Virus record (IMG/VR): IMGVR_UViG_2740892015_000005
Location: 1 to 44,032 of that record
Length of the DNA: 44,032 bases
Source of the DNA: a virus
Lineage: Duplodnaviria > Heunggongvirae > Uroviricota > Caudoviricetes
Reading direction: 5' to 3' (one strand)
The first letter of the stretch is position 1. Every line of letters starts with the position of its first letter. The notes beneath the pieces are model-generated. The model was not told the DNA's origin, did not search any database, and worked only from the letters and a program-made list of their open reading frames with translations. A program made the translations under genes and the position numbers. Positions 1 to 34,164 of the stretch are shown in pieces.

Positions 1-3000
1 CTATCCCGGGGTTTCCTCCTTCATGTTGTGCTGGCGATGGAGAGCAGTACTGCTGACGCTGTCATGCCATAAGCGGGTATAGAGGCCGCCCGCAGATAAC
101 AGCTGTTCGTGGGTTCCGTATTCCGCAAGTAACCCCTTATCAATAACGGCAATCAGATCGCAGCGTTGCGCGGTGGTCAGACGATGTGCAACAATCAGCG
201 CCGAGTGCTTCCCGGCATGCACGACATCTGTTAACGATGACATCAGTCGTTCTTCGGATGTGCGATCCAGACATGACGTGGCTTCGTCGAGCAGCAGGAT
301 GTGGGCATTCGCCAGTTGCGCGCGGGCCAGCGCAATCAACTGGCGCTGACCTGCGGGCAGATCGGCTCCGCCGTTATTCACCGGTGTCCGGAATCCCTGC
401 GGCAGATTGCACACCATCTCATACAGCCCTGCCCGCTGTGAGGCAATTTCAACGTCTTCATTGGTGGCGGATGGCCGTGAATAACGAATGTTTTCTGCAA
501 TATCACTACTAAACAGTGCTACATCCTGATCGACAAGCCCAATCTGGCGACGATACTCAGTGAGCGAGGCATCATCGAGCATTTGCACACCGATTCTGAT
601 GTTGCCGTGCGTGGGGAAATACAACCCGGCAATCAGCTTAATCAGCGTCGACTTACCCGCACCGCTGCGACCGACGACCGCGACAACCATTCCCTCTGGG
701 ATCGTCAGGGTAAGTTTGTTCAGAGCTGGCTCGTGACTGTCGGGATAACTGAACGTGACCTCATCAAGATGCAGTGCACCGGTGACAGGGAGGACCGAAG
801 AGGACCCGAGGTTCTCAGTGCCTTCTGTCGCCAGTAGTTCATCAATATGTTTGCCGCTGGCTGTCGCCTGCTGCCAGGCGTCGACAATCCCTGATAACTG
901 CTGCACTGGCCCATAGAATTGCCCCAGCAACAGGAAGAAAGCCGCCAGTACCCCGGCAGTCATTTCTCCAGCGGCGACCTGCGAAGCTCCCACTAACAGA
1001 ACAGCGGCATAGGAGGCCTCGGTGCAGAATGTCAGGAACGGAAAATAGACTGCAAGGTATTTTTGTGCTCGCACACGGGTTGCGCGGAAACGCTCCGATA
1101 ACGCGCGCAGCCGGGCGCCCTCCAGTTCCTGCTGACCATGCGATTGCACGACACGCAGGCCAGAGACTTTTTCCTGCAGGGTGCTGTTGACTTTGCCTAT
1201 TTCCAGCCGTGCCTGTGCATAAGCAGGGGTACTGAGGCGGCGATAAATCATGGTTGCCAGTGCGGCCACTGGCACTGCGCTTAATGCCGTCAGCGCCAGG
1301 AACGGGTCGAGCCAGAACATGGTGGCGGCGATTGCGAACATCGTCACCAGACTGGTGGCCGCACCGGCAAGGCCGTTTTGCAGAAAGCGGGCGAGAGAGT
1401 CCACATCAACGGTCATGCGGGTAAGACGCGAATCGGCATGCTTTTCATGCCAGGGGAGTCCAAGACGCAGCATATGGCCGAAGCTGCGCAAGCGCACCGA
1501 ATGCTGAACTGATTCCGCCGCTCTGGCGGCGAAGACCGTCTGCAGAGAATAACTGCACCAGCCCACAATGACCAGGCACAGGGCGAGCAGGGCACAGAGG
1601 CCGATGATCGACATATCGCCTGCGGCGACACCGGAGTCAATGCCGTGCTGCAACAGTATCAGTACCCCTACGCCTGCCGCAGAATCGAGTGCGATCAGCA
1701 GAGCGGCGATGACGAACATCCACGCCACAGGCTTCAGTAGTGACGTGACTTTGCGACCTTTACCGGCCAGCGCCTGCTGTACTGCATTTTCCGGTACGCG
1801 GGTCATACGGGCGACAAAACCTTTATCCCCCGTATCCGTTACATCGTCTTGTGTCGCTGGTTCAGCCGGCCACAATTCGTTGTGGCTATTGTGGGACGTG
1901 GCCAGAAAATCGCTGTCGCCGGTCATCAGTGCGCGGAACGCCGGACAGCGCGCTTCAAGTTCTGCCGGGGTTCCGGTATCCACCATACGGCCCTTATCCA
2001 GCACCACAACCCGGCTGGCTAGCTGAAGTGTTGAACGCCGTCGGGCAATCACCAGCAGCATATGCCCTTCGTCAGCATAGCGACCCAGCGCGGTATTAAT
2101 CTCCGCTTCCGTAACAGCATCAACCGCTGAGGTAGTATCATCCAGGATTAACACGTCCGGTGCAGTAATGAGCGCCCGCGCCAGCGCTATTCGCTGCCTC
2201 TGCCCGCCGGAAAGATTCGTACCCCGTTCGGTTAACAGGCTATCGAAGCCTTTCGGCAGGGCGTTAATAAAATCGCTGGCTCCTGCAGCAGCTGCCGCAC
2301 GGCGAATGTCGTCCGCCGTTGCCTGAGGGTGGCCATAGGCGATATTTTCCGCCACCGTACCGGCAAACAGAAAAGCATCTTCAAATACGATGCCTACCCG
2401 GCGACGAAGCGCCTCCAGTCTGATATCGCGAAGATTTTGTCGGCCTTCGCTGGTGTTGAGCCATATCTTTCCGGAGCAGGGATCATAAAAACGCGCCAGT
2501 AGCATCAACAGGGTCGATTTTCCTGAACCCGATGCGCCCACCACCGCCACGGTTTCACCGGCGCGCAGGGAAAAGGAGATATTGCTGAGGATATGTCTGT
2601 CGCCATGGTGGTAGTCAAAGCTCATATTCTCCAGTTCCAGTCCGACAACCTGACTGTTAATCGACTCCGTCCCGTCCTCCATCTGTGAACGGGTGTCGAT
2701 CAGTGCAAACACCCGCTCCACGGACGCCTGAGTGCGCTGTGCGATAACCAGAAACGATGCCAGTACGCGGGTTGGCCCGGTCAGCATCGCGAGGAAGCTG
2801 GCGAATGCAACGAAGGTACCGAGATCGATCCGCCCGTGCATGACCGACCACCCGCCGTAGCACAGCAGGACGATTTGCCCGAGCACCGGTAGCGCCAGCA
2901 TGGTGGCCCCAGGCATCGCCTGCGAGATAACCGCACCGATGCGTACACGCACAATCTGCCGCGACTGCCTATCGAGCCAGTGCGTTTCACGCATCTCTGC

Positions 3001-3660
3001 CACACAGGATTTTACCACTGAGATCTGTGCCAGCACCTCGCGTATATGTTCGGTGAGATTCGCCAGTTGGTCCGAGGCCAGCCCGGTTTGCGCGAAGACC
3101 CTACGACGCGCACGAAGCGCGGTGATCGCCAGGCATACCAGTACGCACACGACGATAAGCGTCATGGCAGGGGACATCCACAGCATCACGGCAATGCCGG
3201 CAATGTAATAAGTGAACACTGCCAGCGGCACCGGGCACATCTGCAGCAGGGTATGCACCTGCTGCAGATCGCTGTTGGTCCGTGAAATCACCTGCCCGGT
3301 GCGCAGCGCATCCTGGCCTGCGCCGTCAAGTTTCTGAATACTGTCGAATACCCGTCCTCTGAGGGTATGCTGCACCCAGAGTGAGAGCATCCCGGCATAA
3401 CCACGGCGCACATAGTTACCGATGAAATCAAAAAAAGCGATCAACAGTAACCCGCAGGCCAGCCACGGCAGGCGGGCCGGATTGCCCGCCAGTGCGTCAT
3501 TCACAGCCTGTCTTGTCAGCAGTGGCGTCAGCGCAGCCAGCAAAATAGTCGATACTGACGCTACCACCACGATGACACTAAGTTTCTTACGTTCCCAGCA
3601 CACGCGCGCTAGGCGAACTATCCATGACTGAGCCGGTGTGGGAGTGTGATTCGCAGGCAT
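1..3660 (-). CDS. Fused ABC exporter (TMD-NBD-TMD-NBD), siderophore/peptide-exporter type (IroC-like architecture); chromosomal flanking gene
   Basis: Two Walker A motifs (GASGSGKST and GRSGAGKST), two LSGGQRQR signature motifs and two hydrophobic permease domains in one ORF. The ORF track extends to 3786, but a GGAGG Shine-Dalgarno precedes the ATG at 3660 (MPANHTP...), giving about 1219 aa. GC content is visibly higher than in the prophage. Confidence 0.8.
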   Translation of the reverse strand: MPANHTPTPAQSWIVRLARVCWERKKLSVIVVVASVSTILLAALTPLLTRQAVNDALAGNPARLPWLACGLLLIAFFDFIGNYVRRGYAGMLSLWVQHTLRGRVFDSIQKLDGAGQDALRTGQVISRTNSDLQQVHTLLQMCPVPLAVFTYYIAGIAVMLWMSPAMTLIVVCVLVCLAITALRARRRVFAQTGLASDQLANLTEHIREVLAQISVVKSCVAEMRETHWLDRQSRQIVRVRIGAVISQAMPGATMLALPVLGQIVLLCYGGWSVMHGRIDLGTFVAFASFLAMLTGPTRVLASFLVIAQRTQASVERVFALIDTRSQMEDGTESINSQVVGLELENMSFDYHHGDRHILSNISFSLRAGETVAVVGASGSGKSTLLMLLARFYDPCSGKIWLNTSEGRQNLRDIRLEALRRRVGIVFEDAFLFAGTVAENIAYGHPQATADDIRRAAAAAGASDFINALPKGFDSLLTERGTNLSGGQRQRIALARALITAPDVLILDDTTSAVDAVTEAEINTALGRYADEGHMLLVIARRRSTLQLASRVVVLDKGRMVDTGTPAELEARCPAFRALMTGDSDFLATSHNSHNELWPAEPATQDDVTDTGDKGFVARMTRVPENAVQQALAGKGRKVTSLLKPVAWMFVIAALLIALDSAAGVGVLILLQHGIDSGVAAGDMSIIGLCALLALCLVIVGWCSYSLQTVFAARAAESVQHSVRLRSFGHMLRLGLPWHEKHADSRLTRMTVDVDSLARFLQNGLAGAATSLVTMFAIAATMFWLDPFLALTALSAVPVAALATMIYRRLSTPAYAQARLEIGKVNSTLQEKVSGLRVVQSHGQQELEGARLRALSERFRATRVRAQKYLAVYFPFLTFCTEASYAAVLLVGASQVAAGEMTAGVLAAFFLLLGQFYGPVQQLSGIVDAWQQATASGKHIDELLATEGTENLGSSSVLPVTGALHLDEVTFSYPDSHEPALNKLTLTIPEGMVVAVVGRSGAGKSTLIKLIAGLYFPTHGNIRIGVQMLDDASLTEYRRQIGLVDQDVALFSSDIAENIRYSRPSATNEDVEIASQRAGLYEMVCNLPQGFRTPVNNGGADLPAGQRQLIALARAQLANAHILLLDEATSCLDRTSEERLMSSLTDVVHAGKHSALIVAHRLTTAQRCDLIAVIDKGLLAEYGTHEQLLSAGGLYTRLWHDSVSSTALHRQHNMKEETPG

Positions 3661-20349: not shown

Positions 20350-20862
20350 ATGAAAGAAATAAAATTAACGCCAGAAATGGTGCTTTCTGTTGTTGATTAC
20401 AATCCATCATCAGGCGACTTTCACTGGAGATGGAGGCAGGGGAGAGAGAGGACCACTTTGACATGGAACTCTCGTTTTGCTTTCAAGAAATGCTCATCAA
20501 TAAATTCTGATGGGTATTTAATGATTATGATTAATGGTAAAGCATACCCTGCTCACAGACTGGCATGGTTGATTGTTTATGGCACCATGCCCGATGGTTT
20601 TATTGATCACATCAACAGGGTAAGAACAGATAACCGGATATCAAATCTTCGTCTTGTCACTCATTCCGAAAATATGCAAAACAGGAAAATTCAGAAGAAT
20701 AATAAATCTGGATACCGTGGCGTGTCTTGGGATGCTAAGTACGGGAAATGGAGAGCAAGAATTAATGCGTCTGGAAAGTGTATTAACCTTGGATACCATG
20801 ACACTGCCGAACTTGCCGCTGCGGCTTTTGAGGCAGCCAGAATGAAATATCATACCGTTTAA
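20350..20862 (+). CDS. HNH homing endonuclease (HNH plus AP2-like domain) in the late leader
   Basis: AHRLAWLIVYG...IDHINRVRTDNRISNLRLVT (HNH) and GYRGVSWDAKYGKWRARI (AP2-like). Paralogous to the ORF at 15941..16552; AT-rich. Confidence 0.8.
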   Translation: MKEIKLTPEMVLSVVDYNPSSGDFHWRWRQGRERTTLTWNSRFAFKKCSSINSDGYLMIMINGKAYPAHRLAWLIVYGTMPDGFIDHINRVRTDNRISNLRLVTHSENMQNRKIQKNNKSGYRGVSWDAKYGKWRARINASGKCINLGYHDTAELAAAAFEAARMKYHTV

Positions 20863-21429
20863 AGATGTAAGCTGCCGTTAGTGACTCTTAAGTTGCAACG
20901 GTGGCTTTTTTGTTTGCACAACAGGTAAGAGCATTGAACCCGCAGACCTCGCGGAATTGGTGAAAGGTGCCGCGCAGTACTCTTATCGTTGTGGTGAATA
21001 CGCAGGCTGATGCGTTAATCAGGTGAACGAGACACCCGCCGGTCCGTGATATGGCACACCGTGCCGGTCATATCTGCCGCGGTTAGGTTTACGAGGATTT
21101 CGTAAAGCTGGTCTAGGGTGAAGCCGTGAAAGCGGAGGAAGTAAAACGAGGCGTCGGTACACGCCTATCGTCATTAAGTCGGAGTTCAGCACCGACCGCC
21201 ACAACCCAAACTGAGCCGTAGCCACTGGCTGTCCTGAATTCATCAGTGATAGTTATGCTGCGGCCTTCTACACATGACCTTCGTGAAAGCGGGTGGCATG
21301 AGGTTGCGCTAACAACCTCATGCCGTTTTGCCCGTGCATATCGGTCACGAACAAATCTGATTACTAAACACAGTAGCCTGGATTTGTTCTATCAGTAATC
21401 GACCTTATTCCTAATTAAATAGAGCAAAT

Positions 21430-21443
21430 CCCCTTATTGGGGG
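21430..21443 (+). promoter_or_regulatory. Stem-loop overlapping the S ribosome-binding site (sdi-like translational control element)
   Basis: CCCC-TTATT-GGGG hairpin immediately 5' of the tandem starts ATGAAGATG of S, as in lambda S107/S105 dual-start regulation. Confidence 0.45.
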
Positions 21444-21449
21444 TAAGAC

Positions 21450-21773
21450 ATGAAGATGCCAGAAAAACATGACCTGTTAGCCGCCATTCTCGCGGCAAAG
21501 GAACAAGGCATCGGAGCAATCCTTGCGTTTGCAATGGCGTACCTTCGCGGCAGATATAATGGCGGTGCGTTTACAAAAACAGTAATCGACGCAACGATGT
21601 GCGCCATTATCGCCTGGTTCATTCGTGACCTTCTCGACTTCGCCGGACTAAGTAGCAATCTCGCTTATATAACGAGCGTGTTCATCGGCTACATCGGTAC
21701 TGACTCGATTGGTTCGCTTATCAAACGCTTCGCTGCTAAAAAAGCCGGAGTAGAAGATGGTGGAAATCAATAA
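21450..21773 (+). CDS. S: Holin S (class I, dual start)
   Basis: Sequence [62 protein letters not shown]... is essentially lambda S as I recall it. Confidence 0.9.
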
Positions 21774-22233
21774 TCAACGTAAGGCGTTCCTCGATATGCT
21801 GGCGTGGTCAGAGGGAACAGATAACGGACGACAGAAAACCAGAAATCATGGTTATGACGTCATTGTTGGCGGAGAGCTATTCACTGATTACTCCGATCAC
21901 CCTCGCAAAGTTGTCACGCTAAACCCCAAACTCAAATCAACAGCGGCCGGACGTTACCAGCTTCTTTCCCGTTGGTGGGATGCCTATCGTAAGCAGCTTG
22001 GCCTGAAAGATTTCTCTCCGAAAAGCCAGGACGCTGTGGCATTGCAACAGATTAAGGAACGTGGCGCTTTACCGATGATTGACCGCGGTGATATTCGTCA
22101 GGCAATCGACCGTTGCAGCAATATCTGGGCTTCACTGCCGGGCGCTGGTTATGGTCAGTTCGAGCATAAGGCTGACAGCCTGATTGCAAAATTCAAAGAA
22201 GCAGGCGGAACGGTCAGAGAGATTGAGGTATGA
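21757..22233 (+). CDS. R: Endolysin R (lytic transglycosylase)
   Basis: [51 protein letters not shown]... is essentially lambda R as I recall it. Confidence 0.9.
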
Positions 22234-22667
22234 GCAGAGTAACCGCGATTATCTCCGCTCTGGTTATCTGCATCATCGTCTGCCTGTCATGGGCTGTTAA
22301 TCATTACCGTGATAACGCCATGACCTACAAAGAGCAGCGCGATAAAGCCACATCCATCATCGCTGACATGCAGAAGCGTCAACGTGATGTAGCAGAACTC
22401 GACGCCAGATACACAAAGGAGCTTGCTGATGCTAACGCGACTATCGAAAGTCTCCGTGCTGATGTTTCTGCTGGGCGTAAGCGCCTGCAAGTCGCCGCCA
22501 CCTGTGCAAAGTCAACGACCGGAGCCAGCGGCATGGGCGATGGAGAAAGCCCAGGACTTACAGCAGATGCTGAACTCAATTATTACCGTCTCCGAAGCGG
22601 AATCGACAGGATAACCGCGCAGGTTAACTACCTGCAGGAATACATCAGGACGCAATGCCTTCGATGA
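22230..22667 (+). CDS. Rz: Spanin inner-membrane subunit Rz
   Basis: N-terminal transmembrane helix ([18 protein letters not shown]) plus coiled coil; position after R. Confidence 0.8.
22423..22614 (+). CDS. Rz1: Spanin outer-membrane lipoprotein Rz1 (embedded in Rz, +1 frame)
   Basis: Signal peptide with lipobox VSAC and a proline-rich mature region ([16 protein letters not shown]), wholly within Rz. The exact start is uncertain. Confidence 0.6.
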
Positions 22668-30183: not shown

Positions 30184-30372
30184 ATGGCACGAACAATGCT
30201 CTATAAGCCGGGCAACATGATCACCTGTGGTCAGTTTGCTGTCGATTACATCATTGTTGATGACGAAGAAGTTAAATCTCACCTGAAAAAAGGCTGGGTA
30301 AAAACTCCTGAAGAAACCGCAACGAAGCAAAAAGTGGCTAAGGCGGAAGAAGATGGCGAAAACGAAGGGTGA
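30184..30372 (+). CDS. Small hypothetical protein between coat and gp4
   Basis: GGGAGAAGACA Shine-Dalgarno before the ATG at 30184 (MARTMLYKPG...); overlaps the gp4 start. Confidence 0.4.
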   Translation: MARTMLYKPGNMITCGQFAVDYIIVDDEEVKSHLKKGWVKTPEETATKQKVAKAEEDGENEG

Positions 30373-30814
30373 TCTCGTTCTTAAGGCTTTACGAAAAGCC
30401 GGGCTGTATTCCAATGCCACGTTGACAGATGCCGACCCTCAGGCAATTGAAGATGCCATTAATGACCTCGAAGACATGATGGCAGCATGGCAGGCGAAAG
30501 GTATCGAGCTTGGATATCAGTTTGCGGATACAGAAAACGGCATCATGCCGTTACCTGACGATGATTCAGGTATCCCTGCATGGGCAAATGATGGCGTCGC
30601 TTTGAAGCTCGCTGTGCAAGTGTGCATGGATAACGTCATTCAGCCGTCAGACGCTCTCCTTACCGCTGCTGACAGTGCATATCAGACAATCTGCATCGCT
30701 TTAACCAAAATACCACCACTTGAGCGGCGAAATGACATGCCTCGCGGTAGTGGTAACAAAAGCGCGTTTACGTGGAATCGGTTTTACATCGAGAAAGATG
30801 ATCCGAGTACGTGA
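30353..30814 (+). CDS. Head completion / tail adaptor protein (P22 gp4-like)
   Basis: Synteny (coat, gp4, gp10, gp26) and size of 153 aa. Confidence 0.65.
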   Translation: MAKTKGDLVLKALRKAGLYSNATLTDADPQAIEDAINDLEDMMAAWQAKGIELGYQFADTENGIMPLPDDDSGIPAWANDGVALKLAVQVCMDNVIQPSDALLTAADSAYQTICIALTKIPPLERRNDMPRGSGNKSAFTWNRFYIEKDDPST

Positions 30815-30823
30815 GGTGAATAA

Positions 30824-30928
30824 ATGCCGATTCAGCAACTTCCGCTTATGAAAGGTGTCGGCAAAGACTTCCTAAACGCCGACTATATCGACTATCTGCC
30901 AGTGAATATGTTGGCAATTTTGATATAA
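30824..30928 (+). pseudogene. Remnant 5' fragment of gene 10 (first 31 codons, then premature stop)
   Basis: MPIQQLPLMKGVGKDFLNADYIDYLPVNMLA matches the P22 gp10 N-terminus as I recall it, then runs into ILI-stop. GAGGTGA Shine-Dalgarno. The intact gene resumes at 31497 with a recoded copy of the same codons. Confidence 0.6.
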
Positions 30929-30964
30929 TAAGTACATGAAAAATCGAAACTTTAAGGAGTAGAT

Positions 30965-31549
30965 ATGCTTTCTGAGAATGCTAAAGATATACCTGGATTT
31001 GAAGGTGTTTATGCCGTAACAGAAGATGGCAGGGTATATTCTCACTCACGTGTTGTTAAGGCTGCGCATGGCAGCACGCAACTCAGAAAGGGGCGCTGGT
31101 TAAAGCCTAAAATCAATCAGGGAAGGGTGCTTTATAATATCGGAGCAAAATGGACTTTTGCCCATCGAATCGTTGCAATGACATTCCTGCCAAATCCTGA
31201 AAACAAGCCTCAGGTAAATCATATTGATGGCAATCCACTCAATAATAACGTCAATAATCTTGAGTGGTGCACTCAAAGCGAAAACATCAAACATGCATAC
31301 GCCACCGGATTAAAGAAACCAATCAAGTTTTTCGGAACCAAGCACCCAAAACACAAGTTGAGTGATGACGATGTTCTTGCAATCAAGTCATCAAAAGAAA
31401 GCTTGTCAGTAATTGCGGCTAAGTACGGAATATCTAAGACCTGGGCAAGTAGGCTAAAGCGTGATGCTAACTGGGTTCATATAAAGGCTGATTCCAATGG
31501 CAATACAACAACTACCACTAATGAAGGGATTGGGGAAAAGTGCGGTTAA
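30965..31549 (+). CDS. HNH homing endonuclease (NUMOD4-like N-terminus plus HNH)
   Basis: N-terminal [19 protein letters not shown] module and HNH motif (FLPNPENKPQVNHIDGNPLNNNVNNLEWCTQSEN). AT-rich. The 3' end overlaps the gene 10 start. Confidence 0.8.
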   Translation: MLSENAKDIPGFEGVYAVTEDGRVYSHSRVVKAAHGSTQLRKGRWLKPKINQGRVLYNIGAKWTFAHRIVAMTFLPNPENKPQVNHIDGNPLNNNVNNLEWCTQSENIKHAYATGLKKPIKFFGTKHPKHKLSDDDVLAIKSSKESLSVIAAKYGISKTWASRLKRDANWVHIKADSNGNTTTTTNEGIGEKCG

Positions 31550-32915
31550 TGCTGATTATATAGACCAACTTCCAGTCAATCTTTTAGCTACGCCCAAGGA
31601 GGTGTTGAATTCATCGGGATATCTTCGCTCATTCCCGGGCATTGCAAAACGTTCCGACGTGAATGGCGTATCGCGGGGCGTCGAGTACAACATGGCGCAG
31701 AGTGCTGTTTATCGTGTGTGTGGTGGCAAGCTGTACAAAGGAGAAAGTGAAGTCGGTGATGTTGCCGGAAGTGGTCGTGTATCAATGGCGCATGGTCGGA
31801 CATCACAGGCGGTAGGAGTTAATGGTCAACTGGTCGAGTATCGTTATGATGGCACGGTTAAAACCGTCTCAAACTGGCCAACAGACAGCGGATTCACGCA
31901 GTATGAATTAGGTTCGGTCCGTGACATTACGCGCTTACGTGGGCGTTATGCGTGGTCAAAAGACGGCACTGATTCATGGTTTATCACTGACCTTGAAGAC
32001 GAATCGCATCCTGACCGATACAGCGCACAATATCGCGCAGAATCGCAGCCTGACGGCATCATCGGCATCGGAACATGGCGAGACTTCATCGTATGCTTTG
32101 GTTCATCAACGATTGAATATTTCTCCCTGACTGGTGCAACCACCGTTGGTGCCGCTTTGTATGTCGCACAGCCATCGCTGATGGTGCAGAAAGGTATTGC
32201 CGGGACTTACTGCAAAACGCCATTCGCTGATTCTTATGCGTTCATCAGCAATCCGGCAACAGGTGCGCCGTCTGTATATATCATCGGCTCCGGTCAGGTA
32301 TCACCAATCGCCAGCGCGAGCATTGAGAAAATCCTCCGCTCCTACACTGCTGATGAACTTGCTGATGGTGTGATGGAGTCTCTGCGATTTGATGCGCATG
32401 AGCTGCTGATTATTCACCTGCCGCGCCATGTCCTCGTGTACGACGCATCTTCAAGCGCCAATGGTCCGCAATGGTGCGTACTGAAAACAGGCCTGTATGA
32501 CGATGTGTACCGCGCTATCGACTTCATTTACGAAGGCAATCAGATAACGTGCGGCGATAAGCTGGAGTCCGTGACCGGGAAACTGCAGTTCGATATATCT
32601 TCACAATACGAAAAACAACAAGAGCATATTTTATATTCCCCTCTAATAAAGGCAGATAACGCTTTAATAAATGACCTTGAATTAGAAACATCTGGCGGCG
32701 TGTGTGATAGAATAGATAAAATATTTATATCAGCCACTACAGATGGAATTAGTTACGGTCGTGAGCAAATGGTCGTATTACAAAAACCATTTGTATATGA
32801 CAATCGCGTTTTATGGCGAAAGGTTGGTCGAGTTAGACGCCTCATCGGATTTAAATTCAGAGTTATTGCAAAAGGTCCTGTCACATTATCAGGCCTTTCT
32901 ATTCGTGCAACATAA
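31497..32915 (+). CDS. Gene 10 product (P22 gp10-like tail hub protein)
   Basis: 472 aa, co-linear with P22 gp10 as I recall it. The first roughly 30 codons and the last roughly 110 codons are AT-rich (recoded) relative to the middle. Confidence 0.8.
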   Translation: MAIQQLPLMKGLGKSAVNADYIDQLPVNLLATPKEVLNSSGYLRSFPGIAKRSDVNGVSRGVEYNMAQSAVYRVCGGKLYKGESEVGDVAGSGRVSMAHGRTSQAVGVNGQLVEYRYDGTVKTVSNWPTDSGFTQYELGSVRDITRLRGRYAWSKDGTDSWFITDLEDESHPDRYSAQYRAESQPDGIIGIGTWRDFIVCFGSSTIEYFSLTGATTVGAALYVAQPSLMVQKGIAGTYCKTPFADSYAFISNPATGAPSVYIIGSGQVSPIASASIEKILRSYTADELADGVMESLRFDAHELLIIHLPRHVLVYDASSSANGPQWCVLKTGLYDDVYRAIDFIYEGNQITCGDKLESVTGKLQFDISSQYEKQQEHILYSPLIKADNALINDLELETSGGVCDRIDKIFISATTDGISYGREQMVVLQKPFVYDNRVLWRKVGRVRRLIGFKFRVIAKGPVTLSGLSIRAT

Positions 32916-32936
32916 ATCGAAACTCAAGGAGTAGAT

Positions 32937-33470
32937 ATGTTAAGTGAAAACGCAAAAGATATCGAAGGATATGAAGGACTGTACGCCATCACTAATGATG
33001 GTAGAGTTTACTCGCATTCAAGAGTAAATTTGAGGGGACGCCTTATTAAGGGTAGGTGGCTAAAGCATAATCATAACGTAAATGGATATAAGTATGTGTG
33101 TTTATATAAGGATGGCGTAAAAAAGAACATACTAATACATAAGCTTGTTGCATCTCACTTTGTTGGTGGATTTGCTGAAGGGTTACAGGTAAATCATATA
33201 GATGGTGATAAATATAATAATAACTATCTAAATCTTGAATGGGTTACTCCATCAGGAAACATCTCACACTCATATGGATTGGAGTCGAGAGGTAATGTAA
33301 AAGGAGAAAGGAATGGTAATTCTAAAATATCTAATGATGATGTCATAAAGATAAAAGAAATGGTTGCCAATGGATTTCCTCAGTGTGAAGTTGCTAAATT
33401 ATTTGGAATTCACAATTCAAAGGTTAGTAGAATTGTAAATGGCAAGGCATGGAGGCATGTTAATGGCTGA
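32937..33470 (+). CDS. HNH homing endonuclease (NUMOD4-like plus HNH plus C-terminal HTH), paralogue of 30965..31549
   Basis: Shares the upstream sequence AAATCGAAACT..AAGGAGTAGATATG and the N-terminus [25 protein letters not shown] with the other gene-10-associated HNH. Motif [22 protein letters not shown]. Confidence 0.8.
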
Positions 33471-34164
33471 TTCGAATCTCAACACCCCTGTTATTGTGCA
33501 GGCTACACGGCTCGACACATCAGTCCTTCCACGCAATATCTTCTCGCAGTCATATCTGCTGTACGTTATCGCACAGGGTACTGATGTTGGTAATGTGGCG
33601 AACAAGGCCAACGAGGCCGGACAGGGCGCTTACGATGCTCAGGTGAAAAACGATGAACAGGATGTCGAACTGGCTGATCACGACGCAAGAATCACCGCAA
33701 ACACAAAAGCGATAAATCTCCTTGAGGTCAGGTTAACAACCGCCGAAGGGAAGATAGTCGTACTGCGTAGCGATGTTGATTACTTGCTGGATGAGGTTAT
33801 CGATATTCAGGCGCATCTGGTCACTGTTGACCAAAGACTGGATGACGTAGAAAACGATGTCTCTGGCATTAAGAGTGATTACGTATCGAAAACCGTAACC
33901 GAATTGCAGTCTCTTGAGTCACCGCTGGATGTAAAAACATCATATTCAGTTGATGGAATTCAGGTTGTTGGAGCAAGAAATACCGGATGGACTGCAGCCA
34001 CAGGTACGCCACTTCTTGGCTCATTCAACGCTAACCAGTCATACACGGTCGGCACTACGTACACACAATCCGAAGTCGCAGCTCTCGCTACAGGTTTGCA
34101 GCAGGCGCGGCAGCGTATTCTGGCGCTCGAAACGGCACTTAGATTACATGGGCTGATTGACTGA
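33463..34164 (+). CDS. Tail needle protein (P22 gp26-like)
   Basis: 233 aa, alignable with P22 gp26 ([37 protein letters not shown]...; C-terminal [22 protein letters not shown]). Confidence 0.85.

Follow-up and report, generated by a model that had tools for sequence, protein, structure and literature searches.

Organisation of the gene 10 locus

The window analysed here, a stretch of 44,032 nt (IMG/VR record IMGVR_UViG_2740892015_000005), originates from a prophage in the Escherichia coli chromosome NZ_OZ040490.1 (100% match), and the order of gene 4, the gene 10 region and gene 26 within it is that of the tail-accessory cluster of a P22-like phage. Near its 5' end, gene 10 is interrupted by an insertion that carries a homing endonuclease gene (HEG) of the HNH type, here termed HNH-1: a short fragment of the resident gene 10 (the stub) lies upstream of the nuclease gene, and a complete gene 10 with a second, divergent start (the restart) lies downstream. 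The original prediction, made from the letters of the window, had placed three parts at this locus, a stub open reading frame (ORF) at 30824-30928, an HNH gene at 30965-31549 and a gene 10 restart at 31497, and all three are present at these positions. The parts of the interrupted gene are as follows.

30824..30916, + strand: the stub, resident gene 10 codons 1-31, a pseudogene fragment and proposed left homology arm that matches uninterrupted E. coli-type 5' ends
30917..30964, + strand: the cassette leader, read from the sequence
30965..31549, + strand: HNH-1, a free-standing I-HmuI-like NUMOD4-HNH-HTH (helix-turn-helix) homing endonuclease gene of 194 aa, assigned from Pfam, a PDB sequence match and Foldseek
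31497..31616, + strand: imported gene 10 codons 1-40, with 64% nt identity to CUS-3 over 123 nt
31497..32915, + strand: the chimeric gene 10 (gp10, 472 aa), with Pfam Phage_stabilise over residues 4-471 (E=4e-279)

The stub ORF encodes MPIQQLPLMKGVGKDFLNADYIDYLPVNMLA and then stops, as had been described, except that three codons of inserted DNA (ILI), which the earlier description omitted, precede the stop codon at 30926-30928; the leader supplies both ILI and the TAA TAA that ends this ORF. The stub keeps its own Shine-Dalgarno sequence (GAGGTG, at ~30811-30816), and the NCBI PGAP annotation of NZ_OZ040490.1 already calls it a pseudogene ('packaged DNA stabilization protein, incomplete, missing C-terminus'). 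Downstream, the 3' end of HNH-1 and the restarted gene 10 overlap by 53 nt in different frames; residues 178-194 of the nuclease are gene 10 codons 1-17 read in another frame and are predicted to be disordered, and the Shine-Dalgarno sequence of the restarted gene sits within the HNH-1 3' end. The GC content of the HNH-1 ORF is 42%, against ~50-52% in the flanks.

The two gene 10 starts lie in direct orientation, 673 nt apart. When they are aligned, 24/31 residues are shared (BLASTP E=4e-17) with 65.6% nt identity over the first 90 nt, a similarity that, judged from the alignment, is far beyond chance and bears out the relationship that had been predicted between stub and restart. Of the imported codons, 1-31 (31497-31589) are a second copy of the stub, and 32-40 took the place of resident sequence, of which no copy is left. 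The restart is also AT-richer, again as described: the GC content at third codon positions of its first 41 codons is 0.37, compared with 0.59 in CUS-3 and 0.56 in ST104, which represent the E. coli-type and the Salmonella-type uninterrupted allele respectively.

One junction in unrelated phage backbones

Comparison with uninterrupted alleles (CUS-3, E. coli 573, Sf6 and HZ41) places the insertion after gene 10 nt 92. Relative to alleles such as CUS-3 the insertion amounts to ~672 nt, and with carets marking its boundaries the sequence runs ...AATATGTTGGC^A...TTTTAGC^TACGCC... (also TTGGC^A...AGC^TACGCC). CUS-3 and E. coli 573 have the same gene 4 as the window and an uninterrupted gene 10. The inserted DNA brings the HNH gene together with foreign codons 1-31, and the resident codons 1-31 stay upstream as a fragment, which is the arrangement that the original prediction had proposed.

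Among 5,426 complete E. coli genomes the region is present in 913, and 18 of these carry the cassette at the same junction and with the same spacing. The cassette was also found in 27 IMG/VR contigs, every one with a stub at identical spacing, in 8 metagenome contigs and, at 99% nt identity and the same junction, in the isolated and viable Salmonella phage UPF_BP1. All HEG-bearing loci share an identical junction, and the uninterrupted site is found in ~895 E. coli genomes and at least 120 IMG/VR contigs. That the arrangement is an artefact of assembly or annotation has a negligible probability and was rejected, given that it recurs identically in 18 complete genomes, one phage isolate and dozens of independent viral and metagenome contigs. 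Nor does the duplication occur without the nuclease gene, a finding that would have spoken against an endonuclease invasion: no such case exists among 916 E. coli records, in which coverage falls from at least 88% directly to 37%.

The phages that carry the cassette are otherwise diverse. Relative to the window, gp4 (the gene 4 product) of the carriers is 40-100% and their coat protein 26-99% identical; gp4 of the cassette loci is bimodal, being either 99-100% or only ~40% identical, and the cassette is present in at least four unrelated gp4/coat backbones. UPF_BP1 has a 166-aa gp4 of the P22 type, unlike that of the window. The chimeric gene 10 start of the window is also found in UPF_BP1, and since this is an isolated phage, the chimeric gene 10 must work.

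The GenBank record of UPF_BP1 (KX776161) has a misplaced gene 10 start, at 21073 instead of the true 20965 and therefore 108 nt or 36 codons too late; the gene occupies 20965-22383 of the record (2175-3593 of locus L001), and its 34-codon stub is not annotated.

Diversity, selection and crossover

Diversity was calculated as the per-site pairwise difference over 33 distinct sequences. It is ~0.005 from ~30899 to ~31640, which covers the cassette, 0.035 over the stub and ~0.5 upstream of the stub; further on in gene 10 it is 0.03-0.14 (~0.06 in the adjoining part). This profile therefore delimits a mobile unit of ~700 nt, with exchange ending within tens of bases, and such low diversity across unrelated backbones points to recent horizontal spread. 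On its left side the low-diversity tract extends ~20 nt and on its right side 30-60 nt, which may reflect co-conversion of flanking markers or later recombination.

The HNH-1 ORF is intact in 16/17 distinct alleles, the remaining one being frameshifted in strain ES5, and its variant sites comprise 12 synonymous and 8 non-synonymous changes over 125 and 457 sites respectively. The resulting dN/dS of ~0.18 indicates that the ORF is under purifying selection. The stubs fall into 27 distinct haplotypes that track the backbone, and one of them is frameshifted (locus L008, LD39-1). The stub of the window itself carries R17L. Their differences are mostly synonymous, as expected if each stub was captured from a working allele. 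The stub of UPF_BP1 is a mosaic: nt 1-53 match the Salmonella type at 53/53 positions and the E. coli type at 39/53, whereas nt 54-92 match the E. coli type at 38/39 and the Salmonella type at 29-30/39. The cassette has therefore passed from an E. coli-type donor into a Salmonella phage, with the left crossover inside the stub.

It is suggested, with a probability of roughly 0.7, that the sequence from 30917 to ~31620 is a mobile 'terminal-replacement' homing-endonuclease cassette of ~700 nt, lodged after gene 10 nt 92. An alternative is that it is a passive mosaic module, which arose by a single illegitimate event and is now moved by ordinary homologous recombination via the conserved gene 10 flanks; the HNH protein would no longer drive its spread and might be retained in some other role, for instance to harm its competitors among phages. 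P22-like phages are well known for their mosaicism, in which one gene 10 is accompanied by many types of gp4, coat and gp26, the cassette has a low prevalence (18/913 genomes), the whole of gene 10 was transferred along with it in UPF_BP1, and there is precedent for a homing endonuclease as a competition weapon (PMC11620839), all of which would fit such a module. Nevertheless, passive movement is considered unlikely for two reasons: first, diversity in the cassette is tenfold below that of adjoining gene 10 and rises within ~20-60 nt of the cassette ends, a sharp rise that is the pattern expected if exchange starts at the insertion site. Second, fixed differences between target and restart lie directly at the junction, as set out below. 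Purifying selection further shows that the protein is used, though not for what.

The HNH-1 nuclease

HNH-1 matches the Pfam families NUMOD4 (E=1.3e-8; 35.3 bits, cut-off 23.4) and HNH_3 (E=1.9e-10; 40.6 bits, cut-off 24.8), and by sequence it matches the homing enzyme I-HmuI (PDB 1u3e; E=1e-8) at an identity of ~25%. The AlphaFold model, built with 54 relatives, has a mean pLDDT of 86 and consists of an N-terminal sheet with strands at residues 16-65, an HNH core and three C-terminal helices (134-142, 147-154 and 158-165). In a Foldseek comparison with the PDB, 1u3e was the sole match below E=0.001 (8.7e-7; 200 alignment columns), the next matches being recombinase HTH domains; the TM-score of the pair is just 0.43-0.47, in keeping with an elongated protein of several domains. 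Residues N85, H86, N98 and N107 are invariant in the 54 relatives. Sequence and model thus both place HNH-1 among the I-HmuI-like NUMOD4-HNH homing endonucleases, with site-specific cutting as its probable activity.

It is generally known that HNH proteins aid terminases in some phages, and HNH-1 could in principle be an accessory nuclease of packaging, as in HK97-like cos phages, with the duplication beside it being incidental. This is very unlikely and was rejected: ~98% of the related prophages are without the gene, P22-like phages are known to package by a headful mechanism, the NUMOD4-HNH_3-HTH architecture has the homing enzyme I-HmuI as its sole structural match, and the gene lies among tail accessory genes and does not adjoin the terminase. 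A group I or group II intron or an intein was likewise considered and rejected, as no Rfam family reached E<=1 in 30300-33700 and gene 10 is complete from 31497, with the HNH gene in a different frame.

Leader and expression signals

The leader contains a promoter-like element. TGATATAAT lies at 30921-30929, exactly at the left junction, where it resembles an extended -10 element (TGnTATAAT) and also supplies the stop codons of the stub, and each of the five diverged cassette lineages retains the motif in the form TG[AC]TATAAT; TGNTATAAT occurs once in the 44-kb window. A scan for sigma-70 promoters, requiring both -35 and -10 boxes, found nothing at the junction. The element may function as a promoter, which would be of the extended -10 kind. 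An AAGGAG ribosome-binding site for HNH-1 follows at 30954-30959, and the last ~26 nt of the leader are homologous to the leader of the HEGs found at the junction of genes 10 and 26.

A weak terminator-like hairpin at 30897-30916, of 8 pairs when G-T pairs are counted and followed by ATTTT, straddles the left junction and is probably fortuitous.

Origin of the new start and the candidate target

Across 127 phage records, identity between the restart and the uninterrupted alleles is 70-73% in every case, with no intermediates, and the imported start is 99-100% identical among all cassettes of the window's clade. The original prediction had described this start as recoded. That it is a divergent copy is correct, but the term suggests too much design, as 7/31 residues differ and comparison of the alleles indicates a natural third gene 10 lineage with added AT drift and not a synonymous redesign. 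The apparent recoding is accounted for by natural divergence, because the E. coli-type and Salmonella-type alleles are about equally far apart (71.5% identical over the same stretch).

Neither the diagnostic peptide of the restart nor the sequence after the junction occurs without the HEG in IMG/VR viral contigs. A scan of metagenomes with a looser pattern gave 9 matches, among which a single HEG-free one, the divergent locus L216, has an N-terminus (MPIQQLPLMKGLGKSPANADYIDQLPVNLLA) that shares the diagnostic residues L12, S15, Q24 and L29 with the restart; of 41 codons compared, 5 are non-synonymous and 25 synonymous. At the protein level the restart is nearest to the lineage of L216 and L222, and the same lineage forms the gene body in L222. 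A search of the protein database with the 61-aa N-terminus of the restart matched short gp10 fragments only.

Locus L216 (952-2370 on metagenome contig ERZ1026872 NODE-82) holds a HEG-free gene 10 whose insertion point has the restart-type AATCTTTTAGC; over nt 1-30 this gene is 100% E. coli-type, after which identity falls to 50%. Judged from this pattern, a stub and a restart could have recombined in L216 and so healed the site, with loss of the HEG leaving a resistant allele, and L216 could equally be the natural donor lineage.

These relationships bear on a further alternative, in which the gene 10 start was duplicated locally in tandem, the copies diverged and an HNH gene later inserted between them. 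The direct orientation of the two copies, 673 nt apart, is as a tandem duplication would leave them. However, the copies are only 65.6% identical, the stub nearly matches present uninterrupted alleles and follows each backbone, and the restart comes from another natural lineage (that of L216 and L222); divergence in situ to 65% would have destroyed the unselected stub. An in situ duplication is contradicted by these relationships between stub and restart and was rejected as extremely improbable.

In less closely related P22-like phages, at loci of 43.5 to 51% GC, older forms of the cassette lie between genes 4 and 10, with relatives of HNH-1 that are 82, 81, 72 and 69% identical (loci L223, L222, L218 and L219-221 respectively). 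In each of these four lineages the stub ends at the same codon, although that of L218 has decayed and contains an early stop. Each also has TG[AC]TATAAT at the junction, a conserved leader with GGAG and a restart with its own Shine-Dalgarno sequence, and the nuclease ORFs extend 20-25 codons into gene 10 in another frame. The shared junction implies that one founding junction predates the 30% divergence of the enzymes. Because the junction is common to cassettes with nucleases only 69-82% identical, it is old and inherited, and the sequences place the founding event outside the prophage of the window.

Across the five cassette lineages, two positions distinguish the stubs and HEG-free alleles from the restarts without exception, nt 85 (A versus C/T) and nt 90 (G versus A); one further site near the start codon (~nt 9) was set aside in this count. 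The corresponding motif is AATATGYTGGC in the targets and AAT(CTT/TGC/CTG)TTAGC in the restarts. Within the window's clade, 10/21 bases just after the junction are changed, with one amino-acid change. Enzymes of the I-HmuI type cut within a few bases of their insertion site (PMC3428280), and the differences next to the junction are the best available pointer to the probable recognition site of HNH-1. A cut is predicted at or near AATATGYTGGC^ACNCC in gene 10 (the caret marks the insertion point), with nt 85 and 90 critical, and the changes in the restart may make the invaded allele resistant to cleavage.

Proposed mechanism of spread

In the proposed scheme, HNH-1 would recognise an uninvaded gene 10 at AATATGYTGGC^ACNCC... 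and nick or break the DNA, and an invaded genome would serve as the repair template for the break. On the left, the broken end would pair with the donor stub, to which it is 90-100% identical, and not with the restart (65%); on the right, the end would be resected past the divergent 30 nt and pair with the gene 10 body beyond ~nt 124. The cargo of the cassette, namely the leader with TGATATAAT and a strong ribosome-binding site, the HNH gene, the internal Shine-Dalgarno sequence and foreign gene 10 codons 1-40, would then be copied in, bringing the nuclease gene and the new start together. The resident codons 1-31 would become a dead, redundant stub, and gene 10 would be rebuilt from the cassette start and the resident body with no need of splicing. 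Both homology arms lie within the conserved gene 10, which would therefore allow entry into P22-like phages whatever their gene 4. In the founding event the left end of the break was probably joined to the donor independently of homology, since none can be expected from so variable a gene 4.

Several observations weigh against this scheme. Ordinary recombination between the conserved gene 10 flanks could move the cassette with no need of the nuclease, and gene 10 of UPF_BP1 is wholly E. coli-type, which resembles the exchange of a large block and not a short conversion tract. The cassette is rare, at ~2% of the region-bearing E. coli genomes (18/913). A stubless HEG between genes 4 and 10, which would represent the ancestral state, was not found in the phage database, E. 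coli, IMG/VR, the GTDB species genomes or the protein database, the GTDB scan giving only relatives of at most 49% identity in unrelated bacteria. The residue before the catalytic histidine is Asn (N85) in HNH-1 and Asp in I-HmuI; this is probably a family trait and not decay, because it is invariant in all 54 aligned relatives. The frequency of TGNTATAAT is near chance, with 1 found and 1.6 expected in the window. Finally, I-HmuI and I-HmuII cleave alleles with and without the insertion alike (PMC3428280), so that immunity need not follow from a divergent start.

It was also considered whether the duplication is an adaptation and not debris, in that it would at once permit homing despite the hypervariable gene 4, expression from the prophage and use of the nuclease as a weapon between phages or for exclusion. 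As a joint proposal this is doubtful. One part of it is that the cassette, by its own extended -10 element (TG[AC]TATAAT), may be expressed from a resident prophage; another is that the nuclease would cut gene 10 of superinfecting HEG-free relatives, converting or crippling them; and a third is that, through the direct repeats, the cassette may be lost cleanly and a resistant allele remain, L216 being a candidate. If the proposal is true, the same layout in the unrelated genes described below (L061, L054, L069 and L093) would make terminal replacement a general third way in which phage HEGs inhabit genes, beside introns and inteins.

Relation to known systems

The closest analogue of the gene 10 cassette is the fungal mitochondrial mobile ORF (mORF), reported initially as atp6-ORF360 of Allomyces macrogynus and subsequently as the atp6, atp9, cox2 and nad3 hybrids of Glomus (PMC3630166). 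In both, an endonuclease gene is accompanied by a foreign gene terminus, the host gene is a hybrid and the native terminus is left as an untranslated or unused fragment. In Glomus atp6 the duplicated ends are 63.5% identical, and the fragments of mORFs are 91-98% identical to HEG-free relatives (PMC3630166); here the two ends are 64-66% identical and the fragment is near-identical to HEG-free alleles. By sequence, then, the gene 10 cassette has both marks of an mORF, a terminus duplicated around a HEG and a fragment that resembles HEG-free relatives while the copy in the gene is foreign. For mORFs, mobilisation of this layout by its own endonuclease has been shown biochemically (PMC3630166). 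The two differ in that mORFs replace the 3' end, encode LAGLIDADG or GIY-YIG enzymes and reside in organelle genomes, whereas the gene 10 cassette replaces the 5' end, encodes an HNH enzyme, resides in a temperate phage and has its own promoter-like element; since the 5' end is replaced, the cassette must bring a ribosome-binding site and a start codon. The layout is thus known from fungal mitochondria, and what is described here is a phage HNH version of it with 5' replacement.

Likenesses to phage systems are more partial. In the intronless homing of T-even phages (SegF, SegB, SegG and MobE; PMC155333, PMC2330249, PMC2790892), polymorphic free-standing HEGs also lie beside their presumed target, flanking markers are co-converted, as they may have been here, and MobE is likewise an HNH enzyme; these HEGs are intergenic and without duplication, whereas the gene 10 cassette lies inside a coding sequence and the gene is rescued by the end that it carries. 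The original prediction had called the arrangement the expected footprint of homing-endonuclease invasion. Its core is essentially right, in that the feature is real and a HEG was inserted, but this is not the usual footprint of intronless homing in phages, which leaves no duplication. In nrdA of Aeromonas phage Aeh1, split by mobE (PMC1851037), and in the split gp43 of T4-related phages, a HEG also lies in an essential gene whose function is kept; in those genes in pieces both halves are expressed and assembled, whereas here a complete gene lies downstream of the HEG and the piece on its upstream side is redundant. I-HmuI of the Bacillus phage SPO1, an HNH nicking enzyme (1u3e), agrees with HNH-1 in its fold and in the order of its domains, from the N-terminal NUMOD4 sheet through the HNH motif to helices that bind DNA at the C-terminus; its gene lies within a group I intron of the DNA polymerase gene, whereas HNH-1 is free-standing with no intron RNA detected. 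No description of the gene 10 cassette or of such a phage layout was found in the literature, and a prior mention in the papers of Casjens on P22-like prophage diversity is possible.

The cassette illustrates that a selfish nuclease gene can, with no need of an intron or intein, inhabit an essential gene of a phage by bringing a spare gene end, a solution that fungal mitochondria reached independently. To a specialist this would not be astonishing; its usefulness lies in the conserved architecture, the pinpointed candidate target, a gene 10 made chimeric by two HEGs and the recurrence elsewhere of duplicated gene ends next to HNH genes.

A second HEG, a gene 26 fossil and other HEG-like genes

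The remaining features of the region are listed here.

30353..30814, + strand: gene 4 (tail accessory factor gp4), the upstream neighbour, Pfam P22_Tail-4 (E=7e-41)
31484..31498, + strand: gene 26 fossil, the first five codons, with 13/15 bases matching the native start
32577..32915, + strand: variant AT-rich gene 10 3' end linked to the second HEG, from the identity profile and the drop in GC
32937..33470, + strand: HNH-2, a second NUMOD4-HNH HEG of 177 aa at the gene 10/gene 26 junction, Pfam NUMOD4 and HNH_3

HNH-2 is 42.5% identical to HNH-1 (tblastn). IMG/VR loci L147-L151 hold identical copies of it; in L128-L138 and in HZ41 another HEG, of 181 aa in HZ41, is found at this site. The last ~340 nt of gene 10 in the window (from 32577) are 48-73% identical to CUS-3 and Ec573 and 95-100% identical to HZ41, with GC falling to 0.35-0.39. 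This variant gp10 C-terminus is found in every IMG/VR contig that carries either HEG of the gene 10/26 junction, and it is a clean replacement that left no remnant. Given this replacement linked to HNH-2, the functional gene 10 of the window is a three-part chimera, consisting of a 5' end from the cassette, a resident middle and a variant 3' end tied to HNH-2, and mosaicism in P22-like phages can in this instance be ascribed to two HEGs.

The fossil (AAGGCTGATTCCAAT) matches the native gene 26 start (ATGGCTGATTCGAAT) at 13/15 positions and lies directly after the conserved end of HNH-1. When HNH-1 and HNH-2 are aligned, it directly adjoins their 3' ends, and the native gene 26 starts of CUS-3 and UPF_BP1 are the same 15 nt. 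A 1-nt deletion puts the ancestral stop out of frame, giving HNH-1 a 20-residue tail. The fossil is no proof that HNH-1 originated at the gene 10/26 junction, as the older L218 and L219 have no fossil and, in its place, a normal gene 10 ribosome-binding site. On the sequences, gene conversion between paralogous HEGs would explain the fossil equally well as descent. The first 47 residues of HNH-1 are near-identical to those of the HZ41-type HEG (87% nt identity over 164 nt, window 30965-31128 and locus L003 2446-2610), whereas the two are only 55% identical overall; the HEG paralogs thus appear to be mosaic.

A third HEG-like gene lies elsewhere in the window, at 20350-20862 on the + strand, and encodes 170 aa with HNH_3 (E=2e-18) and AP2 (E=1.6e-8) domains. 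In a further IMG/VR record (IMGVR_UViG_2541047757_000009; locus L121, 4943-5447), gene 10 is separated from gene 26 by ~500 nt of additional sequence with no match to HNH-1 or HNH-2.

Terminal duplications beside HNH genes recur in unrelated prophages and metagenome-assembled genomes, in which distant NUMOD4-HNH genes are also flanked by duplicated gene ends; the functions of the genes named below were read by eye from the sequences. At L061 (814-1888) the duplication is C-terminal, in an endolysin-like gene (KRERNxRQVQAFINLIG), and at L054 (984-2604) the end of an integrase-like gene is duplicated. A C-terminal duplication at L069 (2422-3723) is fused to the HEG ORF, and at L093 (2729-3665) a 35-aa N-terminal stub of a helicase-like gene is followed by the HEG and then by the full gene.

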